Assembly: GCA_905178155.1 (NCBI GenBank)
Contig: CAJINV010000005.1
Coordinates: 7,370,989 to 7,434,988, forward strand
Origin: Amoebophrya sp. A120
Taxonomy: Eukaryota > Protista > Dinoflagellata
DNA length: 64,000 nt
Reading direction: 5' to 3'
The notes beneath the pieces were generated by a model that saw only the letters and a program-made list of their open reading frames with translations, was not told where the DNA came from and ran no database searches. The position numbers and the translations under genes are program-made. This document shows, in pieces, positions 107-62,203 of the stretch (positions within the stretch are counted from its first letter, which is position 1; every line of letters begins with the position of its first letter).

Positions 107-2319
107 CACCGTGACACTGTCGAAGTGGGACAAGAATGAGAAATTGTGGTGGAAAATCGTCTGTGGTTGCATCGTCTTTCTGGTGATTCTTATGTACGTG
201 TACGTCTGTTACCTGTATGAAATGCAAAAATGTCTGGGTCTGCAAACTTGTGATGCTAAAATGTGCATGATGAAAACACTTTCGAATGCAGTCTGGCATG
301 AGAACTTCCCAAAACGCTTTCTCATAGGCAATCCGCATGAGAAGCTGCGTTTTTGCATGACAAAAGAGGCTGCGACTTTTGTTCGTTATGCAATACAGAT
401 TTTCTAGGTATGGAAAGCTAGCATTACAAGTCCCAACCTTCCAGACCCAGACATTTTTACAATCCATAACCTGCACCCCTTGACGATGGCGCGGCTGGAG
501 CGGGAAGAGAAAGAGCAGGAGATGGCGCAGGCGGCCTCCGATTGGGCGAGCCACTACAACGTGCAACAGGCGGACTATACGTCGGCGCAAGGGGGGCTCT
601 TTGGCGTGACGCCGTCCGGCGGTTTGCCGAACAACCGGGGCACGCACGGGGGAGTGTGGGCCGGTCCTTCCTCTTTTCGCGGCACGGCGGCCGATATTCA
701 AGTAGAGAAAAAAACTGTCTTGGTACAAGTGTAGCTGGCCTGGGAATGATCGTGGCTACAGCATATATAAATTTGCTCTGCATGACAGAGAAATTATGTT
801 ATCCTGTCATGCGCCGCGCCTAGTATCAGTGAACGCACGTTCGTATGAAAGAAAGGAAGACTAGGACACTATGCCTGGCTTCTAGCATGACGAGTGATAT
901 ATTGTGTGAGTACAACGTGCGTATCATTCATTACAGACTTACACCCGACGCACAGTTTATTTTTTTTTTTTGCATAGCGATAGCTGGCAGCGGGCAGCCG
1001 TCCTGGGGCGGACCAAGCTCCTTCGCCGGAATATGACACCCTCAGAATGGAAATCCTCAAAGTGGAAATAATTTGTGATGCATGAAATGCGACACCAAAA
1101 AGACTGTATTGCAGAGAACGCAATGGAGGCCGACTACGGTGCTTTACGGGTTCAGAATTGGGCCGGTGATTAGCATGAGAGAATGGCACCCCTTTGCCTG
1201 ACTAGCATGAGAGACACATTTTGAGTGCCCGGGAAATTTGTCATGCGCCGACTACAAATGGTGCTCCAACTGGACTCGTTTTTTTGCATTACAAATTATT
1301 TTCACTTTGAGGATTTCCAACCTGAGGCTTTCATACGGAACGGCTCGGGGCGGTGGAGGGGACTGGTCCTCGTGGAACGGGGCCGGACAGTACGGCAGCG
1401 GCGCCGGGTATGCGAGTGTCAGGACTGAAATTGACAAAGTTGAAATAACTTGTAATGCATAAAATCGATACCAGTTGGAAGCCAAATTTCCAAGCGGTGC
1501 GTGACAAAGTTCACAACCGTCTAGTACATCCAGTTTGTCATGCTGTTCGGGCACAGGAGAGTGCTTTTGTCATGCTCCTTTAGCAGCTCTATCCCAAACC
1601 CTAAATAGGCTCACAATCTCCTGCCTTGCTTGCCATCCCGGCAAGACAGGCACTTCATGCCTTGCATTTTATGCATGGCAAATCATTTCAACTTTGACGA
1701 TTTCAGTCCTGACACTCCCATACCGGGCAACAAGGAAGTTGGAACGGGCAGTGGGGCGGCGCCGGACAGTCTTGGGACGGTGGAGGCCACGGAATGGCGG
1801 GCGGCGCGAGGCAATGGGAGTGGGGCGGCAGTGGCGCCTCATATGGTGCAGGGTACACCAGTAACGGGCAACAAGCGCGTTGTATGGAAGGGGGTCAAAA
1901 ACGAAATCGGCAAGGTTGAAATATTCTGTCATGTTGCGACGTGTTGAAATGGTAGGACTCCTACCATTTAAGAAGAAGACCGGCACTCCGTGGTCCTCCT
2001 AGGATCACGAAGTGTAGTCGGTCTTCTTGCACCAAGTGGGTTGGCATAATATGAGGCCGATTGTACTAAGCCTGTTCGAGGTAGTTCTTGGAGATATTAG
2101 AGCTGCGTAGGAGCATGAAATCAAAAGCCATCTTTTTTTCCCCGGAAGAGCGTGGGAAATTGGATTTAGGTGATCATGCCAAAATTTGTCATGCGCCGCT
2201 CGATTTTATGCATGGCAAATTACCATCTCAATGCTTTGGTCGATTTTGAACCTGGCCCTTCCATACCTTCTTGGAATCCCGACCCTCAAGTCTACGGCAA
2301 CTCGTCTTACAATTATTAA
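107..2319 (+). CDS. 5'-truncated gene; membrane protein with Gly/Trp-rich C-terminal tail (unknown function)
   Basis: Exons join in frame after removing elements at 216, 695, 1032, 1409 and 1883. Contains TM-like WWKIVCGCIVFLVILMYVYVCYL, then repeated WxGPSSF and G/W-rich sequence. Stop TAA at 2317-2319. Confidence 0.75.
216..468. mobile_element. Introner family A (TIR TATNAATGCAAAAATGTCTGGGTCTG)
   Basis: TSD ACCTG; near-identical to 9617-9869. Confidence 0.92.
695..982. mobile_element. Degenerate introner, family H-like
   Basis: TAT...ATA, TSD GCCGA/GCTGG, frame restored. Confidence 0.65.
1032..1335. mobile_element. Introner family C (TIR TATG..TCAG.ATTGAAATC..CAAAGTTGAAATAA)
   Basis: TSD CGGAA. 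Confidence 0.9.
1409..1722. mobile_element. Introner family C
   Basis: TSD CCGGG. Confidence 0.9.
1883..2265. mobile_element. Degenerate introner family C with internal hairpins
   Basis: TATGGAAGGG...CCCTTCCATA; TSD CGTTG/CCTTC. Confidence 0.75.
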
Positions 2320-4454
2320 CCGAGGTGGAGCCAGGGCCAGCAAAAAGGAAAAATCCAACTAGAAATAACCAAGTGTCCGAAATCGACAGCAAATTCATTG
2401 CGTTGACGCAAATCATATATCATTTTCGTTTTCCTCCTCTTTATTCGGCTTTCGTATGTTTTACTCGGCTTTCCCATTGACGCTGTACAAGCTGAGGTTT
2501 ATTTTACACTTGATTTTTTAAAAATACATTGACGGTATACTTTTTCATGTGAGCATTCGTTTTTTCAAGTTTTCAGTTGCCAGTTTCTCACTTATTTTTT
2601 TCTCACACATTCAAACATTTCGTATGTGTACATCAACATCTTCTTTGCAGTCTGTCAGCCTAGAAAATGAGTCTCTTGTTTCGAAACCAGCAGCAACGCG
2701 AGGGAGTTCTTGTGCCTCGTCCTGTACAAGAATTATGAAGTTTACAACTGTACAATTACACTTGAGAGGAAAAAGAACGAAAAGGTTGACTGTGGGTTGA
2801 GAAATTTTATTGGGGAATTGTACTATGTGAAAAACTTCTAGTAAAATTCTACGGTCTTATGTGGGGAACGAACGATTCTCACAGTCGCAGTCCACCATCG
2901 CGCCGCTGCGAGTGAGAACAACCTGGCTCCCCTCCGCCGGCGTGCTGCCATGGATCGTTCTCGTCGGTAGTTGGCTCTCCGTTTCTGTTTAGGAGCTTCG
3001 GCAAGTGTTCAACTTCGCAGGCACGTCCGGCGGGCTGGTCCAGAAATCTTTCACACACTAGTTTTCCGGACGTGGTAGATCGGCGAAAGCGGGAACTTTA
3101 ACTTCTACATCTACTACTGATGCCCCAGGAAGGAGGGTAATATCATTCTTATGGTCGCAGCTGCTGCTCTTGACGTTGAATCGATTGTTTCATCCCACGA
3201 TCTGGTTATTTTCACTTATTTCTCGCTTTATTGCAGGCTTTTTTCTCATTTCTTGTGTAGGCGAGTCTAGTACCCCCGGCGTGGCCCTTTGTTCAAAGAT
3301 GAAACGCAACAGAAGATCCGGTAGAAAACAAAACAAGTGCGCTCAGCTTTTCTTTCTTGTTCCACCAAGAAGATCTTTTGTAATGTTGTTGGCACTTTAA
3401 TATTTCTCGTACAGAGGCCAAAGTGATCCTACCGAGCTAGTAATCCTGGGCGGGACCATCATGAAATACAAATAAATGTAGTACGCAAAACATCTAGTGA
3501 TGTGCATTCCACATCTTCATTCAGCAAATTGGCTTGTAGTTGTACGACGCGAACCCGTAGACAGAGAAGTTCTTGCTTGGTCGTGGGCAGCAGCTCTATA
3601 GTCATTGCTATAGGTCTTCAACACCTGCAACATCTTCTCCATGACGAAGATCTTGATCTCAACATCTTTTTCCCCTCGCAGTAAATCAAAATAGAAAAAA
3701 TAAAAACACGTAAGCTCACCAAGTAGACCGCAGCGAAGATTGCTCGTCGAAAGAAGTTCCTGTGCATGATATGTAGTCTACTATGAGTTCTAGATCCTGC
3801 TCTACTTAAAAGCGATGTTTCTTGTCCCATTTGATTGCCGCAAATAACGCATGAAGCTGAAAATGCTAGTCAAGAACAAGATCATCATGGTGGTTGATTT
3901 TTGGTGCGGCTCTTGCATGTGATAAATTTTTTGCGTAGTTTCTCCGCCCGACTTCCTTTTGCAAAATAAACCAGAAACAAACTCGTACACAACTTTTACA
4001 GCGACATCAAAAATACGAATACCGGAAGGAGCGCCGCATGATCTATCTTTATTTTCGCCCTATTTATTGTTGCCACGGGCACGGCTTCACATATTGATAT
4101 TTTTGATGGTAGAAACAAAACCCCAGCACAAGCAAACACGCGTAGGTCGTACTTTCTAGTCCACATCAACAGCAGCTTCCGCACGACGACCTACTAGAAC
4201 TAGAATCAAATCAATCATGACCGCGACGACCGGAAACTGGTGAAGATTCTTCAACCAGTCATTCTCATTTATCAATAAATTCCGCAAAATAATCCGATGC
4301 TCGCCAGAACAAGTGGATCCTAGCTAAGAAGACCACAAGGACAAGCAGCACCCGTGTCGCGAGTAGAGGACCAGCAGCACTAGCAATTTCAATTTCTTTT
4401 CAAACCAGGCGAGGGCGACACAATAATAACACCTTCACCGTTCTCGATATCAAA

Positions 4455-7400
4455 ATGAACGCTCCGGGCGAAGATTCCTCTGAGTACGACTCCGATTCCG
4501 TCAGCGCTGGGGAAGTAGAAAAGAAGGAACAACAAGCGGGGACGAAAAAGGAATCCTCCTCTTCCTCGCCAGCGTCATCCCCGAAACAGAAGAGCTTGAA
4601 GCGGGCCCAGCCAACATATGAAAGGGGACAAGAAGAAATCAATGTCTCTGCACCAACTCATCTGCGTGTAGTTGATGTCGCGGCCAGAAGGAGAGCAATA
4701 CAAAAGTTATAAGTTTGAGTTTCTATTTTGATGTGATCATGCAAAATGCCAATCACCAGAGGGCATGATAGTACCAGCATCATGTGGTCCTGCGAATAAA
4801 TGTGCATCTGCATTATATATAGCCTATGAAAAATTTATAATTAAGTCGCTGTCGTTCAACAATCATTCAGAGGACAACCAGGTCGTTGGGGCTGACAAGT
4901 TATTCTTCTTGTCCACTTGCATACAACAGGAGAGCGCCTCTTACCCGACGAGGACGAGGAGAAAGAAGGTCCAGATGGAGCAGAAGCTGGCCAGGCAGTA
5001 CAACCGGGCCAAGATGAAGGCGAAAATGAGAAGAACGACAACGCCGGGGGAGCCGCGGGTGGTCCCGCCTCTTCCCGCGCGAATGGTTATGCGCACGAAG
5101 ACGAAAAGGACGAAAAGCAGAGAGAGCTGGAGCTCGAGGCGTACAAGAAGCGCAAGGTGCAGAAGGCTTCCGCTGCGGACTTGACGCGGACAGGCGGGAC
5201 GTATCTACCGCCGTTCATGCGGGCGCGGCTGGAAAAACAGATTGACGACGTGAACAGCCACGAGGGTCAAAGGAGGAGCTGGGAAGCGCTGAAGAAAAGT
5301 ATACGTTTTTGCTATGCAAATTCAAATAGTTTTACTTCATTTTCGACCATTCATTATCTGCATGACATGACGAAGGAACAGTGTAAATCTATTGCACAGA
5401 TGATTCTACTCTCCAAACTATACTACATCGCCTTCTTCCAGGTATCAACGGCTTGGTCAACAAGGTGAACACCTCGAACATAAAAAACATCGCCTGCGAA
5501 CTCTTTTTATCCACTGTGCACAGTTGCATTTGTCAGGGGGGCCGCGAGGGAATTACAATTAGATTGAGAATCCTTGCGGTCTTGAGAAACACGGAAGTTT
5601 GTGTTTCCTGGTAGAAGTTCTTGCTACACCCTGCCTGTCATGAGAATGAAGTTGACCACCTCGTCGTCCAGCACGTGACGTCCTCACGCTGCTTGGAAGG
5701 TGGATAGTACTACACTTCAGCTTGTACTAGTTGACAGGAACAAGATCTGTCATGCTAGGCGGGAGTAAAGACGAGTTTTCGAAATCGTAAGTGGACCTAA
5801 ATCTTTTGCTCAGTGCGCCACATTGACGAAAACTTGGACCTTTTATCAGATGAACCGCAAGAAGAACGACCCTGACATTTGTCATGCATTTTTCCCATCC
5901 ATACGCCGGCGAGAACCTGATGCGCGGAGAGGGGCTGTTTGCGCGAGCAATCATTCGAGCACAGATGGCGAGTCCCGGGTATTGATTGTGCTATTTCTGG
6001 TTTTTCTCGTCGAAAGGTTTTATTTATACATCTTCTGCTCGAGTTCATAGGTACAATACGATACAAAAAAAATACAACGAATCTTCCAGTCGTCGTGACA
6101 TTATGGTGCAGACATGCAATGTTTTGTAGGTGTCACGCAAATACGCACTTCTTCTTCGGATTCTTTTCGCTGAAAGAGACAAGATGCAGCAATCAAAGCA
6201 GGCAGATAAAAATAAAATTTTAAAATTTCGCGGATTCTGAAATTGCATAAAAATAAAATTTTGAAAATTCGCGGATTTTAGTGATTGATAAAAGCCAAAA
6301 TTTGCAATTTTGCGAATTTCGAATGGATGTCTTCGACGATGTAAAAGGTTTTCAAACAAATAAAAATAAAATTTTGAAATTTCGCAGCTGGTAAAAGATA
6401 ATTGATTTTATAAAAAGCGTCTAATGGTGAAACAACTGCTGCGGCATCCATATTCCCGTGCCGAGCAAGCTAGTGTAGGTGGATCACCACACCGTCGTGT
6501 ATGATGTTATTCACGAGGGTATGACAGCCCCTTCGTCCACATACGTTGTCGGCCTCAACTTTTCCCTCCTTTAAATGTCACTATATCGATCGGGTATAGG
6601 ATTATGCACGACCGTATCAAGTGCGCCCGAAAAGTTGTAATTGTGTGTTGTAGCGATATCGAGAACTTAGACAACATAAAATCACGGAACCAGCACCGAT
6701 GACTCTTCAAACTTCAAAAACTGCAGGTTCACACACATCTACGTGGCGCTACTCGCGGTGATAAACAGCAAGCTGCCCCGAGTTATGAAAAAGAAAAAAG
6801 GTCGTGGCGATTGTGATTGTGTGTGGCAGCAAAAGCGAAAGCTCGAGCTTGCAACAATGTCGTGGATAGATGTTTCAACTCCATTTATTGCGTCTTTCAT
6901 ATGCAAGACGCGTGTTTGTATGATGAGAAGATCTGCATCTGCGAAAAGTGCTTGCAAGTTGACTTGGAAGTGGAAAGCGTGTCGTGCGAAGATGAAAATC
7001 GCCCGAGCATTTGCATCAGTGCAGACTTCCACTCATGTTTACCGGTTTCATATTGTCATGCGAGTGAGCATCATCAAGGAAGCGAAGCAAATACAGAAAC
7101 TATTGTCACCTTCTTTTTCGTTTTCATACTTCTCGGACGGCTGACTATCACGCGGGTTATTTTGCAGTTCCGCCGGGCCTACAAGCGAAACGACAAGATC
7201 GTTGTCTCTGCGGTGTGCAAATTCATCGCCCACCTGGTGAACCAGTACATTGTGTCCCAGACGGTGGCGTTGGAGGTCTGCCTGCTTTTCTTCGAGGACC
7301 TGACCAACGACTCGGTGGAACTTTGCTGCGCGCTGATCCAAGACGTCGGCGCGTTTTTACTTGAGGAGGACCCAAAAGCGCTGGACTTCATCATGAACAA

Positions 7401-10400
7401 GCTGCGCATCGTGCTGCAGGAGGGAAAAATCGACGTGCGCGTGCAGTACATTGTGGAGCAACTACTCAAGACGAGAAAGGACCGGTTCGACCAGTTTCCG
7501 CCCATTATCAAGGAGCTGGACCTGATCGAGGACCTGGACCGAGTGCGACACGACGGATTTCAGATCGATGACGTGACCTTGCGTGCCCAGGAAATGCTCA
7601 ACATCTTTCAGAAGAAAGAACCGGCAGAGTACTGCTATTGTCTTTATTTTTATCCCGTTCTTTAGTTGTTTATTCCAATCGTCCGGCTTGGTCTACTTCG
7701 ACGAAGCAATCATATCTTCCCCTCCTTAGTGATATTCCAGACTGAAGAGTTTGCGATTTTGATTCACACGTTGATTGTAGAGCCACGGGGGAAAGATAAA
7801 TAAATCAAAAAGTTGTAGAGAAGAGACAAACTGTACAACTACGGAAAAATCAAAATCTGATTTACAGCTTCGAAGAAGAGGAGAAGAACTGGAAGGACAT
7901 TAGCAAAGAGATTCTCGGAGGTGACAGCGACAGCTCGTCGGGATCGGAGTCGAGCTCCGAAGACTCCGAGGCCGAGAAATCGGAGGAGCAGGTATCGAAT
8001 GTAAAAATGTCTGGGTCTGGAAGAATGTGAACTTGTCATGCAGGTTTTCCATGACCCTTGAGGTGTGGACTGCGGGACCTAGCATGACAGAGGCTGTGAG
8101 GTCTCTTTCGTGCCTATTCTGCATGAGAAACTGCCTTTAAACTTGTTCAAAAGTGGACCTCTTTTGGTAATCATGCAACACAGATTTTTGCATGATTCGG
8201 ATTTACCATGACAAGTTGCAATCTTCCAGACCCAGACATTTTTGCAATCCATAGCAGGTGACGGCAGACCAGCACCAGGAGAACCTGATGAACCAGAACA
8301 ACATCAAGGACTTGACCGAGCAGGATTTGTATGAACTGCAAAAGCATCGTACTAGTATGAATTGCATTACAAATTTCCTCAGCATGAGAAATAAAATTTG
8401 TAATGCGGATTTAACTTGACAAAGAAATTTGGAATGCATAAACGCAATTACTACGAGTACGATACTTTTGCACAGCATAATTTGGTGAACCTGCGCCGTA
8501 CCATCTACCTGACCATCCAGAACGCGCTTGGGTTCGAGGAGTGCGTGCACAAGATCATGCGGCTGAAAAACGTGGACGGATTGGAATACAACATTGCCCA
8601 GATGGTGCTGGACGCCGCGGCCATGGAAAAAACGTTTTCAGAGTTCCACGCAAAAGCGGCGGCGCGGCTGTGTGCCTTGCGGGAAGAATATAAGGCGGCG
8701 TACGAAAAACTTTTCGAGGAACAATTTGAGACGGTATAGTTAGTTTTACCTTGTGCAAAAGTATCGTACTCGTAACTCTTGCTTTTATTATGCGTTACAA
8801 ATATTTTTCTTAAAGGCAAATCCGCACTGCAAATTTAATTTGTAATGCTAAATGCAATTTGAAATATCCACCTAACCACAAACTTTATATCAGATCCACA
8901 ACCTGGAGACGCCAAAAGTCCGGTCGATTGCCAAATTCTTCGCCCTCCTCACCTACCACAACGCCATCTCCTGGGGGATCCTTGCGTACATTGTTTTGAC
9001 CCCCGAAGCGACCAATTCTACCATCCGAATTTTCGTCAAGTACTTCCTGCTGGATCTGTCGGAGAATGTTGGCGTGCGGGAACTGTACAAGAAACTCCAC
9101 TCCGGGGAGATGTCGTTGATCGTTGCGGGGATCTTTCCCCGCGATTCCATGAACAACATGCGGTTTTCCATCAACTACTTCACCGCAATTGGGCTTGGCG
9201 TTTTGGTAGAACCGTTGCGGGAGCACTTAACCAGGGTGCAGCAAGACGAGTACTCTGAGTAAAAACATCTCCACCCCAGAGTTGTCATGCAGATTTGCCA
9301 TTGGAGGAACATCTGTAATGCGCACCCCCTTGAGAGGCATTTCCAATTTGTAATGCTGTAAACAGGATAAGCGGATGGATTTGTGATGCGGTTGTCCTTG
9401 CTAACATGCACTACACTACGGACTGCAACTTGTCATGCGTGGCTGCCTAAACTTCTGGACTTGTGTTGCTAAGTTCCCAACTTGACTCTGGAGTGGGGAC
9501 GTTTTCACATATGATAACGAGCAGGAGAAAGCCATGAAGCAGTTCGAGATCGACATGCACCAGTTAGACAGCGACGGAAACGAGTCGAGTTCGTCGAGTA
9601 GTTCAAGCTCCTCTTCTATGAAGTGCAAAAATGTCTGGGTCTGGAAACTTGTGATGCTAAAATGTGCATGATGAAAACATTTCCGAACGCAGTCCGGCAT
9701 GACAACTTCCCAAAACGCTTTCTTATAGGCAATCCGCATGAGAAACTGCGTTTTTGCATGACAAAAGAGGGCGCGACTTTTGTTGATTATGCAATACAGA
9801 TTTTCTAGGTATGGAAAGCTAGCATCACAAGTTCCAACCTTCCAGACCCAGACACTTTTACAATCCATATCTTCCTCCAGCAGCAGCTCCTCCTCCGGGT
9901 CAGACTCCGACAGCAGCAGTAGCAGTATCAAAAGAAAAAATACCCCCACGACCCCGGGTGCTTCAAAAATTTGTGATGCAAAGTTTCCAAATGAAAACTT
10001 TTTGTATTGCATGGAAGGACTATGAATCTATCTGATGCAGAATTATCTAGGCGAGTAAGGCGTCTTTTCCATGACAGACCCGGCTGCTGCTGGGCTCTTG
10101 CGCAACACAAATTTTAGCTGTTTCGCATTGAAAATTTGTGATGCTGATATATGCAAGACAGGGAATGTTTCTAGTGGAAAGGTTTGCAAGACAAACTTGC
10201 CAAATTCCGAGGTGGGGGCATAATTTTTCATTGCGATAAGCAGCTCCTCTAGTTCATCCTCCAGTAGCAGCTCGAGTTCCGACTCCGGAGCTGCTAAGAA
10301 AAAGAAGAAACAAGCCGAAGCTGTGGCAAAGAAGGGGAAAAACAACAAGAAAGACGGTGGAAAAAAGATGAAAAAGCCTAAAACTAGCAAGGGAAGCGAC

Positions 10401-11570
10401 GACGCAGACGGCGGTGAGGACGCGGACAGCACAAAGGAACATGCGGGGAAGAAGAACAGGAAGGCGAAGGATAAGGCGGGTAGTAAGACTTCGAAAAAGG
10501 AATTACAAGCAAAAAAGAAAAAGAAAACTACATCCGCTTCCGGTGAAGAAGACGACCAAAATGTTGAAAAGGAATCCTCTGAACAACGGAAAGACGCTGA
10601 TGATGAAAACCAAAACAGTCGTGGCCGCAGCAAGGAGAAGAATGGCAAGAAGAAAAAAAACTCCGCAGCAGCATCGAAGGAAAATAACAAAGACCCCGCA
10701 GGGGGCGCGGGCGAAGGGAAGACGAAAAAGAAGAAAAAAGACAACCAGGACGACGATGGTGAAAATCATGTGGACGAGAAAAAAAAAGGTAAAAAGAAGA
10801 ACGGCGATAAGAAGAAGAAGAAAACCACGTCGAAAGCAGAACTGAATAAAACGGGTGCAGCTTCCAAGAAGAAGAGTAAGCAGAATTCCTCGTTCGAGGT
10901 AGACTTGGACAAGGATGAAGAGGACCTGGTTGCCAAGGACGAGAGACTAAAGAAAAAAGCGAAAGAGCTGGCCGAAAAGCGGCAAAGCGCCGCTGTGAAC
11001 GTGAAAGTAGAAACCAACATCAAACCGAAAAACACCGACGTGGGGCAGCTAAAAGTGCTGGCGAAAATTCAGAAAGAGGCGAAGCAAAAGCAGTTGGAAA
11101 AGGAAAAAACGGAGATGGAACAAAGAGCTGCAAAGATGAACAAGACAGCAAATTATACGAAGAACCGGCGCAGCAGAAGTCGTAGCGTGGATTCCCGACG
11201 CAGAGGTGCTCCTGCAAAGGGCCGCGCGGCGGCCGGAACTACAACCGGTAACAAAAACGGGACTACGAGGAGAAACGACTCCCGGTCACCTTCGCCGAAG
11301 AACGACATCAAGCGGGGAGGTGGACGGGCAAAACCAACACGGCAGGACTCTCGGAAAAGAGGCGGCGCTGCAGCAGTGAAGAAACGAGGAGACACCAGTC
11401 GCGACAGGAAGCCCGTGAAACTCAAGTCCACAAGGGGGCAAAACGATTCGCGAGAGCGGGGGGCCGGCGAAAAGAGGAAGAGCATCGACCCTCGGGATTT
11501 GCCCAAACCGCCGAAACGGAACAAGAACAGACGGGAAGTGGTCTCTGATGCATCTTCGCTTAGCCGGTGA
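4455..11570 (+). CDS. CWC22: Pre-mRNA splicing factor CWC22 (MIF4G + MA3 domains), ~1164 aa, 12 introns
   Basis: Family motifs RTGGTYLPPF, QRRSWEALKKSINGLVNKVN, ENLMRGEGLFARAIIRAQMASPGFT, LQFRRAYKRND, LVNLRRTIYLTI...FEECVHK, RFSINYFTAIGLG. Lys/Ser/Arg-rich tail. Spliced length 3495 nt, in frame. Confidence 0.95.
4617..4923. mobile_element. Introner, singleton family (TIR TATGAAAGGGGACAAGAAGAA)
   Basis: TSD CAACA; frame QPT-GERLL restored. Confidence 0.88.
5299..5441 (+). other. Canonical GT-AG intron (CWC22)
   Basis: GTATAC...TTCCAG; joins KKS-INGLVN. Confidence 0.85.
5508..5903. mobile_element. Degenerate introner
   Basis: TATCC...CCATA; TSD decayed, but removal plus 5 nt gives ELFCENL in CWC22. 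Confidence 0.65.
5979..6726 (+). other. Canonical GT-AG intron (CWC22) with internal AT-rich repeats
   Basis: GTATTG...CTGCAG; joins SPG-FTHIY. Confidence 0.85.
6784..7128. mobile_element. Degenerate introner (TIR TATGAAAAAGAAAAAAGG)
   Basis: Removal plus 5 nt restores SKLPRVGRL. Confidence 0.75.
7629..7867 (+). other. Canonical GT-AG intron (CWC22)
   Basis: GTACTG...TTACAG; joins to FEEEEKNWKDISKEILG. Confidence 0.85.
7993..8253. mobile_element. Introner family A
   Basis: TSD GCAGG (allows GT-AG). Confidence 0.92.
8330..8479. mobile_element. Introner family B (TIR TATGNANTGCAAAAG(C/T)ATCGTACT.GTA)
   Basis: TSD ATTTG. Confidence 0.92.
8734..8893 (+). other. GT-AG intron containing a family B remnant
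   Basis: GTATAG...TATCAG; TGTGCAAAAGTATCGTACTCGTA at 8752-8774. Confidence 0.82.
9251..9516. mobile_element. Introner family D (TIR TATCCTGAGTAAAAACGTCCCCAC)
   Basis: TSD ACGAG; left end TAC. Confidence 0.9.
9617..9869. mobile_element. Introner family A
   Basis: TSD TCTTC. Confidence 0.92.
9926..10238. mobile_element. Introner family G-like
   Basis: TSD AGCAG. Confidence 0.88.
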
Positions 11571-15800: not shown

Positions 15801-17362
15801 AGACATTTTTGCAATCCATATGAAAACTTTCTGGGAGATAGCGCTCTCGTTCAAAAAGAGGCGGATCCGAGCGCTGAAGGTATGAACTGCAAAAGTATCG
15901 TACTCGTATAAATGCATTACAAATTTCCTCCGCATGAGAAAGAAAATTTGTAATGCGGATTGACCTTAAGCAAAGGATTTGTAATGCATGATTGCAATAC
16001 GAGTACGATACTTTTGCACAGGATAGAAGGAGAGAATTCGCAACGGAGAATGCGCGGATATGGCATTCTCAACTGTTACATTCTTCACTGAAGCATGAAT
16101 TTGCGATGCAAGAACCGCAAAAGCCAAAGGGGGAAGGTTGCACCTGTTCCTTTAGGTGCTGCCTAGCCCTTCGCAGATTTGTCATGTGAAGCAGCTTGAT
16201 CGTGTGCATGATGTTGGGAAATTTTGCATTACAAATGTTTGTAATGCTTGAGAATGTAACGTTTGAAAACCCCATAACGGGCGAGGTGCGGGAAAGGGTG
16301 GGTCTAGTAGACCACGACGAGATATGCAAGGCAAAAGCATCGCGCTAGTAGGAATCGCACCACAAATTCGGTCAGCATGACAAATGGAATTTGTCATGCT
16401 GTTTTGCCTTGGGATGGAGATTTGTAAATGCATGTCTGCAATTACTACGAGTGCGATGCTTTTGCACAGGATACGAGACGGCACAGACCCAGGAGACTCT
16501 CAAGGCGCAAACTTCGTGGAGTAGCAGCGTCGAAGCTGCTGGACGGCGCACAGGAAGTCATAGTACTTCCGAGCCAGAGGAGGTTGTAGCAGGACTTCGG
16601 GGCGGGGTTGTACTACGGAAGCCAGCAATCTTGTTGGATAGCAAAGTCGTGTCTCCTCTTCACTCCAGCAGTGCTGACGGTGGCGGAAATGGGCATCAAC
16701 AATGCGCCAAGATGAACGCGTCCTCCGCCGCCACGGATCATCTTGATTTCGGGCGGTCGTTGTTCCCTGGAGTTGGTAAAGACCCGGACGGCGAGGTCGA
16801 AGCAGCTGACCACGACGAGCAGGATCGAAGTGAGTCGGCTGATGAATCCTTCAGCGAAAAAAGAACTGGCGATGAACAAATTTTCTCGGTTATCCTATGT
16901 AAAAACGTCCCCACGCACGTCATATTCAAGCTGGGAAGTCTGCAACACAAATCCCCAACTTTTGGGAGTTCTCCATGACAAGTTTCGATCTGCAGTGTAG
17001 TGCTGGGTAGCAAGGAAAGCCGCACGAGAAAGCCACTTTCTCATCCTGTTTACAGCATTACAAGTGCCAAAACTACACGACTGGAAACGCGTCTCATGGA
17101 GATGCGCATTACAAATGTTTCTGTCATTGCGCATTTGCATGACAACGCTGGGGTGGGAACGTTTTTACATATGATATCGGCCTCATGGTTGTCCACGTCC
17201 GCCACACCACGCCCCGGCGACGCATATCTGACAGAAGACGCGGGTAGTTGTACCATCGCAGGCATGAGGATGAGCTCAACCTCAACAGCAGCCGTCTGCA
17301 GAAGGGGAAAAGTGGTCTTGTCAAAGGAGACGGGAAAATTGGAATACCAAATTATTTCTTGA
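12854..17362 (+). CDS. Hypothetical protein with PPR-like helical repeats, ~615 aa, 13 introner introns
   Basis: In frame after element removal (1848 nt). RRRFRECAFILEQMQLRQIPFDEISYNFAI resembles a PPR motif, as does AFAFLTQMRSENI-type sequence. Confidence 0.7.
13044..13200. mobile_element. Introner family B
   Basis: TSD ACCGA. Confidence 0.92.
13225..13482. mobile_element. Introner family A
   Basis: TSD CGCAA; right end ACA variant. Confidence 0.9.
13553..13788. mobile_element. Introner family E (TIR TATGA(A/G)AGTGCACAA..CCCC)
   Basis: TSD TGTGG. Confidence 0.92.
14238..14392. mobile_element. Introner family B
   Basis: TSD GCAAA/GCAGA. Confidence 0.88.
14642..14864. mobile_element. Introner family H (TIR TATC(A/G)CA.GAAAAA.GTGTT)
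   Basis: TSD GAAAA. Confidence 0.88.
14937..15086. mobile_element. Introner family B
   Basis: TSD ACCAC. Confidence 0.92.
15105..15320. mobile_element. Introner, singleton family
   Basis: TATCCG...TGCATA; TSD GCTGA; frame HPTLL-RLHANF. Confidence 0.82.
15379..15528. mobile_element. Introner family B
   Basis: TSD ACGCA/ACGCG. Confidence 0.9.
15570..15820. mobile_element. Introner family A
   Basis: TSD TGAAA. Confidence 0.92.
15881..16025. mobile_element. Introner family B
   Basis: TSD GAAGG. Confidence 0.92.
16059..16276. mobile_element. Introner family F (TIR TATGGCGTTCTCAA..GTTACATTCT)
   Basis: TSD GCGGA/ACGGG. Confidence 0.88.
16323..16473. mobile_element. Introner family B
   Basis: TSD CGAGA. 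Confidence 0.92.
16891..17176. mobile_element. Introner family D
   Basis: TSD TCGGT/TCGGC. Confidence 0.9.
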
Positions 17363-51600: not shown

Positions 51601-54600
51601 TAACAGTTGAGAATGTAACGTTTGAGAACGCCATATTAAACCACAGTTCCCCCCTGACCGCCAAAGCCAAGTCCAAGACCGGCGCAGCCAAAGCGGCCTT
51701 CGCCTCCAATATCACAGGAAAAAAGTGTTACAGTTGTTACACACTCGTTGCAATTTCAGCATCACAAAGTTGCTCTGCATAGCAACAAAAACTTGTGATG
51801 CGCAGACTGTAAAGGAAAACACTAAAACGCACCATGAAGTAAGGCTGGAGAGCATTTCCTGCATGACAGAGGTTGTCTGTCTTGCTGGTCTTGCATCAGA
51901 GGGATAGCTGTAACACTTTTTTCCTGCGATATCCAAGCCGAAGATGTCAATGCTGTCCCGGATGCGCACCACGGTCGCGGGGAAGCTGATGGGCCCGGCC
52001 GCGATGAAAGAAAACGACTTAACCTACATATTGTCCTTCCCGATCTCCCGAATAAAATCCGGCGAGAAAAAGCGGTACGCCCCGTTGCACTTCGAGCGGT
52101 GTATGCGGCAGGGGTACGCGATCGACATTCCGAAACTTTCCGCCGAGCGCATCACCCGAGCGGATAACAAGACCATCCTTTCCTTCGGATCCCCACGGGA
52201 GAAATCGAAGCGGGCGAACCGGCTCGAGGGGTTTGAGAAGTACAAAGAGGGAGAATTGTACTTCATCGCGGAGATGGGGGCGAAGTATTACGCGAAACCT
52301 TTGACCAATTTCGAGAAAACGAAGCACTTCTGGAACTTCGACATAATTGCGGAAACGGCGAAAACCAACGTGAAACAGAGGTTTGAACCGGGGGTGATCG
52401 AGGAATTGTCGAAGAAGATGGCGTTGCTTGCGAAGAAGAACAAATCCGTTCCATTGGCGGAAAAAAGGAAACCGAAGACCGGATTGCGCACGATGGATTA
52501 CCAATGTTCCGTGCCGTTAGCGGAGCGAAGAGAATCGGAGTTGACGGAATCGGAATACAGTGAGATATGAATTGCAAAAGTATCCTACTAGTAGTCATTG
52601 CAATACAAATTTCCTCCGCATGATAGCTGGAATCATTTATCATGCTGTTTTACCTTAGGGGCAAGATTTGTCATGCCTAATTGCAATTCGTACGAGTGCG
52701 ATACTTTTGCACAGGATATGAGACCGACTCGGACGATTCCATTTTGTCGCCCGAAGAGATCTATCAAATGCAAAAATGTCTGGGTCTGGAAGATTCTTAC
52801 ATTTGTCATGCATGGCTGACATGACTCGAGACTCTGTGATGCAGGGGCACGAAAAGGCTCGCCTATCTGTCATGTAAAAATGTTGTTTCTCATGCGGAAT
52901 ACGCAACACATAGCAGCTCAAAAAGTTGTCATGCTTGGCTGCGTATTGCAGTCCGGCTATCATCCGCTTTTAGCATTATAAGTTTCCAGACCCAGACTAC
53001 ATTTTTGCATTTGATAAGATCCGGCAAAGGCAGTTGTACAAAGTTCCGAAGAAAAAGAAAGAGGAAGTTGAGGAACCGTTGCGGAAAAAACCGAAAATCC
53101 CGACGTTTTACATCACATTCGGGATTCGGGAGCGGTTCACTCTGGATAAGGAAATCGACGCTTCGAAACGGATATGCAATGCAAAAGTGTAAAGTGCTTG
53201 CTCCTCGTATATTTTTGAATTGCATGCGCGCATGACAAACCCGCTCCTGATGCTGAATCAGCGTGACAAATTCCATCTGTCATGCTGAGCTGATTTGTAA
53301 TGCAGTTACCACTACAACGAGGACCACTAGAAGCACGATAATACTTTTGCACAGCATAGCGCAAACCGGGCGTGAAAGAGATGATGCTGCACTGGCTCGA
53401 AAACCGGTTGGCGAACAAAATCACCGACATCGACGACGAAGCTTCCGGTTACCCCGCATTTGCTATCAAAAGGAAAAATCCCCCCTCCCCATATCGGCAT
53501 GAAGTTTCTGATGCTGGATTTGCGTACACAAATCAGGTCTGTCTTGCTGGAGAGGACTGCAGGCATATGCCAACACTGAGGCGGGTGGTTTTGACGTAGG
53601 CGACTAGCATGTCAAATGTCTATGGTGTAAGCCCGATAGCATCACAAACCGCCTGCATAATGCGGCGGACTCTCTGGCTTTGCCTTCGTGCAAGACAGAG
53701 GGGGTTTGTCGTGGCGACCAATCTGCATCACAAATTTTCGGGCGGATGCGCTTTCAATATGGGGAGGGGGGATTTTTTGTCACAATATTTGCCGGTCCGG
53801 AAGGGTATGCGGAGTGGGAGTTGATGCGGCAGATCCGGAAGAGGTGTAGCGACATGTTATGCATTGCAAAGCAATCGTATTCGTACCACTAGTATAAATT
53901 GCATTACAAATTGACTTAGCCTTAGAAATTGACTTTGTAATCATGCGGATTTGCCTTAAGAGAAAGATTTGTAATGCGGAAACGCCATTGGTACGAGTAC
54001 GATGATTTTACGATGCATACATGTACTTTCACAACAAATCCGACGTGGAATTATTGGAGAAGATCCACAACTCCGCGAAGTCCTTGGAAATCTCCTGGAT
54101 GTTCCTCTGTATGAGGGAGTACGAGACCCGGGTGTTTGGCTTCCGCACCCCGCGGTTTGAAATCGAAAGACGAATCGCCAAAGCGAAGATGGAAGAGGAG
54201 GAACGAGAACGGAAGAAAGCAGAAGCGGCGAAGAAAGCGGAAGAAGAGCGGAAAATGGCGATCATCCGGGGGGACATTCCGCCAACACCAGTGGCTGTTT
54301 CCAAAACAAAATCATCTTCCGCTGCGGTAGTGCCAATTACCGGAGTTTCGACCGATTCGCTAGGAGTTGGTGCTGTTTCTGCAGCAGTTGCAATCGCGTT
54401 CGGGACACCAGCAGCTTCATCGAGGCAAAATTCGTCGCGTGCGAGCTCCCGGAGGTACACGAGCACGGTGGGTGTGCAGGACATCTTAGGAGATGGCGGC
54501 ACAGAATCTTCGTCCGTAGCCAGCTCCCGGGGGGACAACAGGATCGAGCTTAAAAAACTGGCAGAAGTTGATGGCTTGATTCAAACCTTGACCCAGAAGC

Positions 54601-57600
54601 TCTGCTACGACACAGCGAATGGGGATGTGCCCGGGGAAGAAAAACTGGACGAAGCAACGGCGCGGCTAGGAGGGGGAATAGATAACGCAAAAAACAAAAC
54701 TTCTGAAGACGGTAAGGAACAGCAACAAACCACCAACGAGCTGCAGTTTTCTAACCTTTTGGAAGAAAACTTGATTAAGTTAGACATACAAAACGAACAT
54801 AATAGTGGAGAACGACTACCAAAAGAGGAAACAAAAACGGGTCCGCCACCACCGGTACCAGCAGCAGCACCGGGTGACGTTGTACTTGTAGCAGAGAAGA
54901 ATAAAGACACGACCACCTCTACCCCAGCCGTTGTTCCAGAAGTCCCTACCCTCAACATTCCGGACCCAAATACGCCAGCACCAGCAACCCAACAGCAACC
55001 ACAACCTGGCGCACCAGCAACCACACTCACCGTATTTGCAACCGCTCCCGTCCCCAAGCCCAAGCCTCCCTCCCTCGGCACGGGGTTTGGGAACTTCGCG
55101 GGTAATCTTCTCGCCGGGGCGAAACAGCAAACTTTAGGAGAAATTGTCGTGCAGGATGAGCAGATGGACCATAAATTGTGCAATTTAGAGTTTCGCGAAT
55201 ACCCGGACAAGTACACGTTTTTTACGACCCACTACATCTCCTTGACTTTCCAAAACGAGCCGATGTTTCCGCAAATGTTCCTCGCGTTTTTCTTGCACGA
55301 ATACGGAAATTTGAAAATCGAGATTGAGAAGAACTGGCTCCCCAACTTTCGCGTGATGCCGGACGCAAAGAAGTATTTGGAGAAGCTCGAGGAAGAGAAA
55401 ATCCAGTTGGAATTGAAAAAATCCGAGCACAGCCGGGATTTTCACGCACTCAGTACTGAGGAGCTGTTGAAGATGAAAAAAGAAGGGCTGGGAATCGCGG
55501 AAATGCGGCAAAAACGGGTGGTGGAGGTGGATTTCATGCGGAAGCAAAAGTTGGACAAGATGGCGAAGCAGTTTGTCGCGGTCGAAAAGCGGAGGGAGCT
55601 ACAACAGCAGAGAAGCCGATCTACCTCGAAGGACCGAGATTCCTCGATCGGCGCAAGCAGTCTGGCGTCGCCCAAAGCCGGGAGTAAACAACCGCCCGGG
55701 GTGCACTTCCAAGACCAGAAGGGGAGACAGGGTGGTGCTGCTTCACCGAAGGTTTTATCCCGACCGGGCTCTGCGAGCAGTGTTTCAAGACCGGGATCGG
55801 CGGCTTCAGACGCTGGGGTCGGAAAGAGCTCCAGGGGCAGTCTTGGAGGTGCGGGAAATCAACAAGTGAAGCACGCGGCGACGATGCCTGCGTCGCTAGG
55901 CGGAGCAGGCACAACTTCTAAATCCGCAGGCATAAGCGGAAAGGCAGCGCAGATTGGCGGTACGCCGATCGGGTTGCAAGAGAAGCCGAAAGAGGAATCC
56001 GGTTCGGGAAGCGCAGCTTCTTCCGCTGCGGATGATGAGGAAAATGAATTGGGGAAAATCGAAGAAGAAAACGGGACTGCTGGGGATGCGGAAAAGGAAG
56101 GAGAAGCCGCAGGAGGTCCATCTGGAATAAAAGCCGCTGCTGGGACTTCTCCTGGCAAAGCTGGGACAAAGGCTGCTGCGAAGGCAAAGGGAAAGGCGAA
56201 AGCCGGACCTGCTGCTGGACCAAGTGCGAAAGCAACTGCAGCAACCGGTGCAGCTAGTCCTGCGAAAGCCGCGGCCACAAGTAGCGGAAAAGCCAGCGCT
56301 GGCGCCCCGAAGCAGAAGGCCAAGGCGAAACAGCAGGCGGCAGAAAGCAAATCTGGTCCTGCGAACAAACAGGCGGCTGCACTGGAAAAAGAGGAAGGAG
56401 GTGCAGCTGCTGCACCGGGCAGCGGCTCCCCGGCAGGCTCACGGAAATCCACCCCCAACAAGTCAGGCTCTGCTGCCAGTTCAAAATCCCAATCCAGGTC
56501 TGGGTCGGCCACCAGTCAGACTGGTAATATTGGCGGTTTGGACACGAAACCGAGTGGAGAACAGGATGACAGACTTGCGATGGAGATTTCCGGGCAATTT
56601 GGGTCTGTCGAGGAAGTTTCAATCAAACTCGACGAATTGAAAGACAAATCGTTAGACGATGACGGAAATGCAGATAAATCCTCCAACGCATCTAACCTCT
56701 CCGGCCTTTCTTCCGGTTCGTCTGCGAAAGCGAAGCCAAAAATTGCACCGAGGCGAACCGCGACGCGCGTCCAGCGTGGCGGCACAACGGTGTTTATCCC
56801 GAGTTCAAGCTCTGAGTCGTCCTCCGGCTCGGATTCTGATTCCGATAGCGACAAGAGTAGCAAATCGAGCAAGGGGTTTGTGCGTTCCTCGGATAGCGAC
56901 CAGAGTGAGGACGATAGTAAGAACGCGAAAAAGGATAAGAAGAAAAAGGACAAAGAAGGGACTTCATCTTCCGCGGAGGAAAATAAACCAGCACCAGAGG
57001 AGCTCGAATACAGTGATACTGACGGAGAAACCGACCTGTACGCGACCACCAGCTTCCGACAGAAGAAGATCATTCGAAGGAGATTGCTCTACATGTGCAA
57101 GTTAAAGCACCGCGAGTTTTTCGAGAAATTGGCGATTATGCTGAACTTTTCCAGCACGAAATGGTGCTTGCGGGAGTTGTATGCATTGCAAAAACATCGT
57201 ACTAGTAGTACTCGCATCACAGATTTGCTCGGCATGACAAATGGAATTTCTCATGCTGATTTACCTTGAAAAAGAGATTTGTCATGCATAGATGCGATTA
57301 TTACGAGTGCGATACTTTTGCAATGCATAAGTTGTTCAAGATCTACTGCGGGGTGTCCATTCTGGTCCGGAACCGCGGGCGGGACAACGTGATCCAGGAC
57401 AGTTTTCTCGACGAGCGGACCAGCTGGTGGAAGCTTCTGTTGAGGGAAATCATCGAAGTCCTCTGGTACAGCTTGCCCCCGCAGGACGCGGCAGATTTCG
57501 TCGACAACGAAAATTACCTCCTGTGCTCCCCCTTCTTCACGATTAAGCTAGCGAAGAAGTGCTTCGAACTAATTCCGACCTTTACCTGGGCCGACAACGA

Positions 57601-59901
57601 GTGGAAGGGCAAGATCATGCAGAAAATCATCCTGCGGGTGGCGATATGCATTGCAAAAGTTTCGTACTCGTATTAGTAATCGCAGTCATGCATTACAAAT
57701 CTTTCTATCAAGGTAAAACCGCATTACAAATTCCATTTCTAATGCTGAGCAAGTTTGTAATGTGATTTCCACTTCTAGTACGTTGCTTTTGCATTTCATA
57801 AGCGAAGTCGAGCACGAGGTCGATCACCGGAAATGTTCCGCAAGTCGTTTCCGCCGGCACGGGGAACAAAGGAGCGAAGACTATGAACTGCAAAAGTATC
57901 GCACTCGTACGAATTGCATTTATGCATTGCAAATTTCTTTTTCAAGCTAAATCAGCATGACAAATTTCATTTGCCATGCTGAGCTAATTTGTATTGCATG
58001 CAATACTACGAAAAATACCACGGTTGCTTTTGAAGTGCATAAAGACTTCTGCGCAGCAAGTTAGGGCGAAACAGGCGGAACAGAGACTGAAGCTGAACAA
58101 GCAAAACCTCGTATCCTGAGTAAAAACGTCCGCACCCCAAAGCTGTCGTGCAAATGTGCAACGACAGGAACATTTGTAATGCGCAGCTACATGAGAGGCA
58201 TATCCATTCGTGTATTGGGATTTGTAATGCGGTAAACAGGATGAGAAAATGGCTTTGTCATGCAGCTTCCCTTGACAACCACAGCTACACTGCAGAGGGA
58301 AACTTGTCATGCGCAACTCCCAAAACTTGGAGATTTGTGTTGCTACATTCCCAACTTGACTATGGGGTGGGGACGTTTTTGCTTAGGATACTTCAGGCAC
58401 AGCGAACAGACCCCGATCATGAAAACGCTCGTCGACTCGCCGACCGGGTGGCTGTTTTACTCCATGTGGGCGAAGTTACCCGATGAGGAGCCGTTTACGG
58501 TAGACTGGAAAATAGAAACCGAGGAACTCGCGATGCGCATCATTCAACCGCAGAGCCAGCACTGGAAACTGAACGAGATGTATCAGAGCGGCAAGATACA
58601 AGTCCCCGATCACAAAGACCCGGAGAAGAGAGCAGCTTCAGGTCATTCTCTGGACAGTACCGGAAGCTTTGGCGCGGGGTTTCTGCAGCAATTGGAGCAG
58701 ATCGCGGAAGAGCAGAAGCCGAAAGCCGTGGCAGCGGGGGAAGAACAAACCCCAGTTGCAAAGGCAGCTGGTGCGGCGCCACCTACCGGCGAAAAAGGAG
58801 ATCAGGAACAATCTCCAGCGCCTCCGACCACGCTCACTTCCCCGGGCGGGATGCACGATAACGTGAAGATCTACTACATTCCACCAGGCCGGGAATTCGA
58901 CGACGTGCCGTGGTATCTCGAAGGGCAGGTGGAGAAGAAGAAAAAGGCCGCGTCCAAAGACGACGTGCAGAAGGAACTCGCGCGGGCGAATATCATTTGT
59001 AAAAACGTCCCCACCCCAGAGTTGTAATGCAAATCTGCATGCTGAAAATATTTCTTATGCGGAGACCCATGAGAAGCAGTTTCTGTTTCCAGTCGTGGTT
59101 TGGAACAGTCATGCTCAAAGCAGCATGATGTGCTAGATCTGTGATGCTGCAGCTTAACTAGCAGCTAAACAGGACTACACTACGGGGCAAAACTTGTCAT
59201 GCGCAGCAGCCAAAGCTTGTCGATTTGTCTTGCAGATTTCCCAACTTGACTATGGAGTGGAGATGTTTTTACAAATGATAGCGAAGCAGAAGGAGGAAAA
59301 CCGGCTGGCGCGGATCAAGTACTGGGAGGATAAAAAGCAGGCGGAGGAGGAGCAGAAGCGGCTGTACCGGGAAAAGATGAAGAAGGTGCAGGAACTGCAG
59401 TTATGGATTGCAAAAGTGTCTGGGTCTGGAAGGTTGGAACTTGTGATGCTGCATTTGGATTCCAAAAAAGCTTGTATTGCATGAGCAGCAAAGAGAATGC
59501 AATTTTTGCAACGCAGAGAGGACATTTGTCATGCGGACTAGGCATCAAGATGCCCTCAAAAAATCTGTGATGCTAGGGCATGCATCACAGACATCATGGG
59601 TCATGGAAAACCTGCATGACAAGTCTCAGAATCTTCCAGACCCAGACATTTTTACAATCCATAGCAGTACATCGCGTACAAGTGGCACGAGATGGGGAAA
59701 ACGCAGCCGAAGAGCAACCCGTACGACACAAGTTTGAAAAAGTACGAGCAGGAGCTGCCACTGCAACTGGAGCTGAAGGAGTTGAAGGAGCGCACCATTC
59801 GAAACGACAAGGGGCTGTTGCGGGAAAGCGGGGATTTGAGCCCGATGCGGCGAAAAATCCTCGAAGACGCCCTGGCCGGGGATCGGGTGAAGAAGCAATA
59901 G
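48700..59901 (+). CDS. Large hypothetical coiled-coil/low-complexity protein, ~2196 aa, 21 introns
   Basis: ATG at 48700. Continuous frame after removing 20 elements and one 78-nt intron (6591 nt). Stop TAG at 59899-59901. Confidence 0.75.
48844..49128. mobile_element. Introner family D
   Basis: TSD CGGGG. Confidence 0.92.
49167..49326. mobile_element. Introner family B
   Basis: TSD CGGAA. Confidence 0.9.
49489..49733. mobile_element. Introner family A
   Basis: TSD AAAGG/GAAGG. Confidence 0.9.
49775..50000. mobile_element. Introner family E
   Basis: TSD GATGC. Confidence 0.92.
50276..50531. mobile_element. Introner family A
   Basis: TSD CGAGG. Confidence 0.92.
50602..50744. mobile_element. 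Introner, singleton family (TATCCACAATAAATTTCCCGTA)
   Basis: TSD TCGGG. Confidence 0.88.
50806..51086. mobile_element. Introner family D
   Basis: TSD GTAGG/GTCGG. Confidence 0.9.
51224..51302 (+). other. Short AT-rich intron, boundaries ambiguous
   Basis: Frame requires removing 78 nt (GT..TA or TA..AG) or an upstream GC donor. Confidence 0.55.
51399..51635. mobile_element. Introner family F with 6-bp TSD
   Basis: TSD CTAAAC/TTAAAC. Confidence 0.88.
51710..51931. mobile_element. Introner family H
   Basis: TSD TCCAA. Confidence 0.92.
52566..52718. mobile_element. Introner family B
   Basis: TSD TGAGA. Confidence 0.92.
52762..53016. mobile_element. Introner family A
   Basis: TSD AGATC. Confidence 0.92.
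53173..53358. mobile_element. Introner family B
   Basis: TSD ACGGA/GCGCA. Confidence 0.86.
53464..53787. mobile_element. Introner family G
   Basis: TSD TTTGC. Confidence 0.92.
53858..54019. mobile_element. Introner family B
   Basis: TSD CATGT. Confidence 0.9.
57180..57329. mobile_element. Introner family B
   Basis: TSD AGTTG. Confidence 0.92.
57645..57800. mobile_element. Introner family B
   Basis: TSD GGCGA/AGCGA. Confidence 0.9.
57882..58041. mobile_element. Introner family B
   Basis: TSD AAGAC. Confidence 0.9.
58112..58390. mobile_element. Introner family D
   Basis: TSD CCTCG/CTTCA. Confidence 0.88.
58991..59280. mobile_element. Introner family D
   Basis: TSD GCGAA. Confidence 0.92.
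59402..59663. mobile_element. Introner family A
   Basis: TSD GCAGT. Confidence 0.92.
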
Positions 59902-61128: not shown

Positions 61129-62203
61129 ATGACCCAGTTACAGGCTTCTTCAGGTTTCAGCGATGATGACTGGGGCGCCTTTGAGTCCTCACCGCCCGTG
61201 CATCGGGGAGAGGTTCTCCAACCCCAACCAGGGTCAACGTCGTCAGGACCAGGGGGCGCGACGAGTTCCTCTTCGTCTACTTCTGCTAGGAAGATGCAGC
61301 CACCCGCAGTGCTGAAAGTAGACAACGGGACGCTCGACGCGTTATTCTATAACGAGCACCAGCACAGTCGTGGGAAAATATCAAATTCTGCTGGTCCTCT
61401 AGATGAATTACTTGACCATGATCACTCAGGCCGCGGGTCCTCGACTGCAAAAATGATACCTGGAGGAGGTGCAGGCGTGCGTCAGATGAATGAAGCCGCC
61501 ACTGTGCTCGAGGATCACGAGAAACACACGATTACCGTGTACTACAAGGGAGAGAAAAACATCGTCACCTGGTACGCGGACGGCACCATGAGCATATGAG
61601 AGTGCAACTGCACATCAACTACTCCCCCTCGGCCCGCGTTCAAAAGAACGCATGAACAGCAACACAAACAACGAGGGAAATGTGGCTTCCGCATGACAAA
61701 TAAGCTTCTGGAGGTGCACACGGACGGTAGTACTGTTTGAGTTCGTTTCAAGTAAATCTGTCATGCAGGAGAGACAGCCTGATGGAAAGACGCGGACTTG
61801 GTATTTTGCATGACAAAGGCGGAGGTGGAGTTGTTGTGCACTTTCATAGAGCAAGCGCGACATCCAGGAGGCCATACTCTGTGCCTGCGACGCGATCATC
61901 GATGGTGGATTTGTGTTGCGAGAGATGCAAATGAAACATGCCGACGGCAGTCAAAAATGCATGACAAAAAATCATACGAGTGAGACAATAACAACCGTGG
62001 ACGACCTGTTGGGAGACCACGACGGGCCAACTACGCAGACCACTTCCCATCAAGCCGCTTCCGGTAGTACACCAGGCGCAGCAGATTCGACGACATCCGC
62101 AAATAATGACGACGAGTCACAGTTCACACTGACGGACCAAATCCTGGAGTGGGAACAGTTTGACCAGCTTAAACACAATTCCGTCTACCTCCTGCAGCCC
62201 GGT
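61129..62203 (+). CDS. 5' part of a hypothetical gene, presumably continuing beyond the window
   Basis: Exons 61129-61594 and 61854-62203 join in frame (GTMS-KRDIQEAILCACDAIIDGGFVLREM). A family C element then begins at 62204. Confidence 0.65.
61595..61848. mobile_element. Introner family E
   Basis: TSD GAGCA. Confidence 0.9.

Follow-up and report, generated by a model that had tools for sequence, protein, structure and literature searches.

The 64,000-nucleotide stretch analysed here (the window), part of contig CAJINV010000005.1 and assigned to Amoebophrya sp. A120, an organism assignment that we infer, carries 75 elements with terminal inverted repeats (TIRs) between positions 216 and 61848, 143-394 bp each and one of them with a nested insert, and nearly all of them share one short internal motif, GCAT[G/C/T]ACAA, the subject of this analysis. 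The element caller was blind to this motif: its criteria (TAT..ATA ends, a 5-bp target duplication and complementarity of the ends) gave 68 candidates, of which 64 were kept and four discarded (three wrong registers and one tandem repeat), and 11 elements were added by hand, one of which (49167-49326) had been noticed via its leftover motifs. Over the 150 ends the terminal letters are T (1.00), A (0.99) and T (0.99), and a run of A occupies end positions 11-14 (frequencies 0.79, 0.86, 0.92 and 0.76), such that the ends read TAT[C/G]..AAA and match TAT, seven looser bases and at least three A. The 5-bp duplication is perfect in 54/75 elements and has at most one mismatch in 68/75, a count that is partly circular because the duplication was one search criterion; a sixth base agrees in 21/75 (left) and 16/75 (right), near chance.

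When an element and one duplication are excised, 74 of the 75 junctions fall within frames of at least 100 codons. The frame over the junction is open in 70/75 cases when the element length plus five bases is removed and in 69/75 when the length plus two is removed (one flanking base on each side, which leaves one extra codon and keeps the frame in the same way), versus 36-37 for plus three, four or six. The elements are probably spliced out of transcripts, mostly through non-canonical junctions, and GT..AG at -1/+1 is possible in just five of the 75, because TAT..ATA ends with a 5-bp duplication permit it where the duplication begins and ends with G.

In this eukaryotic window, all host frames recovered lie on the + strand (Table 1). 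The CWC22 piece matches solved CWC22 chains, its best database homologues are about 50% identical and the named best ones among 88 matches are mostly alveolates. None of the 88 bears the name Amoebophrya, and the assignment of the organism depends on the anatomy of the elements. This splicing factor gene carries at least eight elements, both old and young. Two old copies split its MIF4G domain, the one at 5508 between homologue residues 16-40 and 42-65 and the one at 6784 between residues 65-83 and 83-248, and these copies (with three and one sites) have to be removed from the mRNA for the gene to function. A GT-AG intron of the same gene (8734-8893) includes two motif sites and an end that can be recognised as family B, and looks like an introner turned canonical intron. 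The seven exon pieces scanned from the 2,923-codon frame gave no Pfam match, and Rfam gave no match at the gathering threshold in the window.

Table 1. Host genes, element families and other features, by position in the window (copies listed by first position)
Feature	Position	Strand	Remarks
CWC22 gene (MIF4G + MA3)	4293..11567, approximate span	+	Pfam, homologues
Old element, TAT..ATA ends, decayed TIR	5508..5903		1 exact and 2 near sites
Old element, single site in 345 bp	6784..7128		Within CWC22 MIF4G domain
Host frame, 2,923 codons once 16 elements are removed	19391..32425	+	Frame restoration
Sec1 family host gene, 13 elements	40076..47603, approximate span	+	Pfam
Host frame, 1,867 codons once 12 elements are removed	51397..59898	+	Frame restoration
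Insert with long TIRs, within family A copy 44899-45719	45118..45675		Negative control: no exact motif, one near site
Family A, 25 copies, ~245-273 bp	Example 9617..9869		Sites at element positions 33-, 81+, 120+, 140+, 206+; copies 216, 7993, 9617, 13225, 15570, 21423, 21898, 22644, 24190, 24504, 25729, 27321, 27958, 29202, 31843, 32151, 40228, 41914, 42404, 43403, 44899, 49489, 50276, 52762, 59402
Family B, 20 copies, 145-186 bp	Example 15881..16025		End sites inward, opposite to family A; copies 8330, 13044, 14238, 14937, 15379, 15881, 16323, 22244, 29500, 30225, 31113, 37070, 42705, 49167, 52566, 53173, 53858, 57180, 57645, 57882
Family C, 7 copies, 264-290 bp	Example 50806..51086		Copies 9251, 16891, 44576, 48844, 50806, 58112, 58991
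Family D, 5 copies	Example 45869..46098		Copies 13553, 29741, 45869, 49775, 61595
Family E, 4 copies	Example 38482..38717		Copies 16059, 38482, 47082, 51399
Family F, 5 copies	Example 28279..28586		Copies 1032, 1409, 28279, 38115, 43047
Family G	Example 53464..53787		Copies 40542, 53464; G-like 9926
H-like copies	Example 51710..51931		Copies 14642, 43741, 46330, 51710
Single copy I	50602-50744
Single copy J	4617-4923		No exact motif

A conserved internal motif and its spacing

Four forms of the motif occur 41/52 (GCATGACAA), 21/21 (GCATTACAA), 17/24 (GCATCACAA) and 13/6 (GCATGAGAA) times on the +/- strands of the window, and GCATAACAA, with A at the free fifth position, occurs 0 times. Over 320 interior sites with at most one mismatch the consensus is GCAT[G/C/T]ACAA followed by A and T, and the fifth position is never A. 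Exact GCAT[GTC]A[CG]AA falls within elements in 192 of 200 cases (17,566 bp, 10.9/kb), versus eight in the other 46,434 bp (0.17/kb), five of which belong to copies that are truncated, decayed or converted to introns (57, 2186, 5879, 7053, 8840), and three ordinary GT-AG-type introns that were scanned have no exact site. When the 74 elements called at that point were dinucleotide-shuffled, they contained 2.7 +/- 1.8 motifs (maximum 8 in 100 shuffles), versus 189 observed. Exact copies number zero in one element, one in 11, two in 25, three in 24, four in 11 and five in three, and sites are spread over the whole element rather than the ends alone. The sequence-only reading had the motif saturating the families while being rare elsewhere; the rarity and the enrichment hold, but saturation is too strong a word for elements with mostly one to four exact copies. 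Its further claim that the motif fades in decayed copies fits 695 (no exact, three near), 5508 and 6784, but exact-site density does not fall with duplication mismatch (0.98, 0.89 and 1.09 per 100 nt in 288, 52 and 7 copies); as a test of age, duplication mismatch is uninformative, the interiors of the 29 mismatched copies having diverged no further than those of the 211 perfect copies.

The motif is conserved at its fixed letters. Among 180 copies of 12 subfamilies, difference from the consensus is 4.1% at fixed motif positions and 12.7% in the other interior sequence, with 4.9% in the inner TIR and 13.4% at the free fifth position, which serves as an internal control; relative to the sequence around them, the fixed letters thus change at about a third of the rate.

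Sites also keep preferred distances. At least one site lies 30-48 nt from the element end at 123 of 150 ends, versus 46 (maximum 62) under random placement; near-end sites face outward in most families and inward in family B, and the first-site-to-end distances cluster at 31-36 and 39-46, by inspection with no evident helical phase. The preferred distance is 31-33 bp, or three helical turns, for same-direction pairs (63 pairs), 46-50 and 16-17 bp for divergent pairs, and 16, 34, 47 and 65 bp for convergent pairs. When one random copy is taken per group, the 31-33 bp peak occurs in 8.7 of 14 groups versus 4.0 at random (maximum 7), and with related families merged in a mean of 6.8 of 12 groups versus 3.7 at random (P 0.002), which establishes the three-turn same-direction spacing. 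A wider model with all sites on a single face of the helix (period 10.25-10.5 bp, offset about 4; fitted without copy J and the two insert-bearing copies of the window) beat all 200-240 shuffles with families counted apart, a signal since superseded because related families had been counted apart. The phase fitted on other groups predicts the held-out groups A (0.35), B (0.43), F/G (0.38) and H/N/O (0.40), and also I and K. An array bound along one face of the helix, with general 10.5-bp phasing, is suggestive only.

Element families in the window and in metagenomes

The inner TIR is conserved within each family and particular to it. Once ends and motifs are masked, copies group with their own family, and the best cross-family score is 37, versus a shuffle maximum of 40 (3000 shuffles), whereas at the level of consensus sequences z>4 is reached by five of the 87 cross-family pairs, and seven exceed all 60 shuffles, in both cases within H/N/O, F/G and C/H; among these 87 pairs, no kin partner emerges for families A, B, D, E and K. 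The families are therefore not one recent lineage, with deep kinship for some of them, and the description of the families as otherwise unrelated is right from copy to copy and too strong for the five faintly related consensus pairs. Neither end-to-end alignment of the families as one recent lineage nor an equal frequency of the motif outside elements was found.

Families also differ in architecture. The TIRs of F and G differ and their site positions almost coincide; family E is without 31-33 bp pairs and has divergent pairs at 46-50 bp in 4/4 copies; in five copies of family C all sites have one orientation (three antisense, two sense). Family A lengths, in the window and in loci L001-L130 of the metagenome set below, have two peaks, 251-253 and 261-262 bp, which differ by about one helical turn and trace largely to an 8-9 bp difference beside one TIR.

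When the family A end was used to scan metagenome contigs, at least 130 loci were obtained (379 kb, at least 80 of them JACKZZ01 contigs), and all figures for this set refer to these 130 loci. The set shows the same pattern as the window; it is biased to family A and is not fully independent, since families are common to it and the window. It holds at least 289 distinct elements of families A-H plus new ones, with 775 motifs within called elements (74.7 kb) and 386 in the remaining 304.7 kb, where the strict caller overlooks copies. All 274 simple elements carry at least one site, including those of families absent from the window. A minimal family K (L007:4805-4913, L016:1008-1119, L034:2636-2747, L078:618-726; 109-112 bp) has two TIRs and only a pair of same-direction sites, spaced by 32-35 bp, and would be the natural smallest probe for binding tests. 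In viral contigs, 120 loci have two motifs 20-24 bases apart, 88 of them with only the two matching sites; the six richest, on inspection, were low-complexity or tandem repeats and were rejected.

The window holds other repeats. The insert nested in a family A copy (558 bp, 170-nt arms) is a different transposon type that hit an introner. At 35084-36813 lie nested inverted repeats that have no relation to the TAT elements and no exact motif: a perfect 397-nt inverted repeat (35240-35636 / 35735-36131) and further arms at 35193/36633 and 36335-36464. The structure appears to interrupt a frame (33912-35135, resuming at 36807). A tandem array at about 62500-63450, with a unit of about 65-70 bp that decays toward the window end, has no motif.

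A putative double-stranded DNA site and its rivals

Our preferred reading, to which we give a probability of roughly 0.55, is that GCAT[G/T/C]ACAA(AT) is a putative double-stranded DNA site for one protein, bound in arrays and aiding element mobilisation. The protein, which would be the shared DNA-binding domain of a transposase clade or a host partner, would bind the motif array on the double-stranded DNA of the element, and once assembled there may help bring the two ends of a 110-330 bp element together; an enzyme reading the TAT ends would then cut and insert the element, leaving the 5-bp duplications. An integrase-like DDE enzyme may be the catalyst, as a lead only. The sequence-only reading had likewise proposed that one protein recognises all families, and this is indirectly supported by the shared termini, the one duplication length, the one conserved motif and the shared spacings, although no such protein was found in the window or these loci. 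Of the branches proposed there, transposase-binding sites fit a multi-copy, subterminal and conserved motif best, again with no candidate transposase found in that sample.

Several observations weigh against this reading. A single transposase would not obviously need family-specific conserved inner TIRs, which suggest several related enzymes or a second contact; since each family has its own inner TIR, a set of related transposases with a common subterminal specificity, or one host partner, would suit as well as a single transposase. Pfam found no transposase or integrase in 31 exon pieces of the window or in the 147 scanned of 165 open reading frames of at least 200 codons in the loci, no autonomous copy was found in the window or the loci, a sample well under 1% of a genome, and the 93 unpaired element ends in the loci gave no obvious long coding element by inspection. 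With families merged, the general helical phase weakens to P 0.04-0.06, or to 0.13-0.15 once the 31-33 bp pairs are taken out. It fails in the held-out families C (0.07), D (0.05) and E (-0.04) and in M, P and Q, a 16-17 bp lattice fits about equally well, and 18, 39 and 49 bp, all common spacings, do not fit the phase. Private (single-copy) substitutions are still depleted in the motif (2.1% versus 3.5% in the interior, or 1.8% versus 3.3% in a second estimate, about 0.55-0.6 of the interior rate), so that selection during transposition is not separable from selection after insertion. In the text of Farhat et al. (PMC7789003), moreover, no transposase was found in A120, and the authors argue against general transposase mobilisation.

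The depletion of private substitutions also counts for a sequence-specific host protein that binds DNA at the motif once an element has inserted, and labels that element in chromatin so that it is removed co-transcriptionally or tolerated; the families would have acquired the motif convergently, since labelled copies do no harm. The run of sites over the whole element, the position of 74/75 copies within restored reading frames and the statement in the text of Farhat et al. that U1 was not detected in A25 or A120 (PMC7789003) point the same way, and strand symmetry fits equally. We consider this explanation, the main rival, unlikely, as the old CWC22 copies and copy J persist in a core splicing gene with few or no exact sites, the ordinary introns scanned do without a site, and private changes include the history of unsampled mobile lineages (median nearest-neighbour identity among copies 89%). 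It is improbable that an RNA-binding splicing factor, or U2 at the branch site, reads GCAUNACAA in pre-mRNA. Almost all copies must leave the mRNA, most elements have at least one sense copy and the branch-site consensus resembles the U-N-A-C core of the motif, but sites split 160/160 between strands in the window although all genes found are on +, and 393/421 when the oriented metagenome loci are included. Transcription direction was set for 189 elements (75 in the window, 114/274 from the loci); sites all face one way in 26 of them, 10 sense and 16 antisense, and family C copies divide into eight one way and six the other. Family B has antisense sites at its 3' end, and the form that would suit pairing with standard U2 best, the one with A at the free position, does not occur. 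The suggestion of an RNA-binding factor marking elements for excision has no support in view of the strand split and the antisense-only elements.

The sequence-only reading had also let the two orientations pair as internal stems, and an RNA stem lengthening the terminal hairpin is predicted for many sites, 130/320 pairing in register with another site at a probability above 0.5, without a shuffled control. Such pairing is not telling because inverted copies of any word would pair, and complementarity at the free base of partner sites occurs in 42/112 outer pairs, equal to chance (37.5%), and in 10/34 pairs at 46-50 bp. There is no G-U preference in partner sites (G-U 3 versus A-C 3) and no excess of G-U over A-C at TIR positions 15-24 (64 versus 62), 11 window elements have all sites one way, and the commonest spacing joins same-direction sites that are unable to pair; we hold stems to be very improbable as the role of the motif. 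Equally little probability goes to a functionless relic of one ancient ancestor, for which the common termini and the faint consensus kinship speak: the fixed positions are threefold conserved while the fifth drifts freely, F and G retain their site spacing though the sequence between is barely alignable, and ancestry may account for origin, not maintenance. Taken together, strand symmetry, antisense-only elements, chance complementarity and the old CWC22 copies argue for recognition on double-stranded DNA. A broader and quite doubtful extension would have one host-encoded DNA-binding protein, through helically spaced arrays, license thousands of TIR-divergent introners, both by folding them for shared integrase-like transposition and by marking them in chromatin for transcript removal, in a lineage in which U1 was not detected.

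Relation to known systems and significance

Subterminal transposase-binding repeats are known from hAT and CACTA elements, and the termini of Ginger elements are TGT. Lemi1 proteins bind the TIRs and, cooperatively, the subterminal repeats of Emigrant, a MITE (miniature inverted-repeat transposable element), which resembles the window elements in having a short repeated motif inside the TIRs, in both orientations and conserved relative to the flanks, in non-autonomous copies (PMC1636448). Unlike in Emigrant-type MITEs, one motif here serves a dozen families with differing inner TIRs and runs throughout the element at fixed spacings, with binding putative. Among integrase-like DNA transposons, the available text describes IS3EU/GingerRoot with TA..TA termini and a TIR structure like the window TAT..ATA, but with a duplication of usually 6 bp rather than 5 bp, and Ginger2 with duplications of 4-5 bp, compatible with those here (PMC10045372). 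Ginger termini differ, as the text of Gozashti et al. states for family 38, and in the same text one A120 introner family has TIRs around Copia-like open reading frames (PMC12130899). No coding element that would place the elements in this group was found in the window or the loci.

The elements themselves are already known. In the published text, A120 introners have the TAT, seven looser bases and at least three A of the window elements, as well as short direct repeats (3-5 nt), non-canonical junctions and co-oriented genes (Farhat et al. 2021, PMC7789003). The A120 rows labelled 'TIR DNA, Unknown' by Gozashti et al. (2025, PMC12130899) have lengths of 149, 209, 214-227, 252-261, 278, 305 and 319-322 bp, corresponding to families B, H, D, A, C, F and G (32 of 58 A120 rows compared). 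The text of neither paper gives an internal motif, a spacing rule or a uniform 5-bp duplication, figures being outside this comparison, and 12 of the 14 supplementary files of the latter have no motif or TIR string. The literature searched, as far as its text was covered, holds no prior report of the motif (including PMC11282704 and PMC11453091, with figures 4, S19, S24 and S25 of Farhat et al. outside its scope), nor does the part seen of bioRxiv 10.1101/2020.10.14.339549, which there makes no mention of Amoebophrya. Subterminal binding repeats are a known kind; what is new here is the slow change of the motif letters, the subterminal placement at 30-48 nt and the 31-33 bp same-direction spacing across families.

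A120 has about 30,000 introners in about 1,950 families, and their spread without a detected transposase and their removal without U1 are open questions stated in the text of Farhat et al. (PMC7789003). A common motif argues for one machinery behind the families, and it sets a likely DNA-level signal apart from the splicing signal. A universal conserved word with a spacing rule would also provide a bait for pull-down and a signature by which an autonomous element may be recognised.

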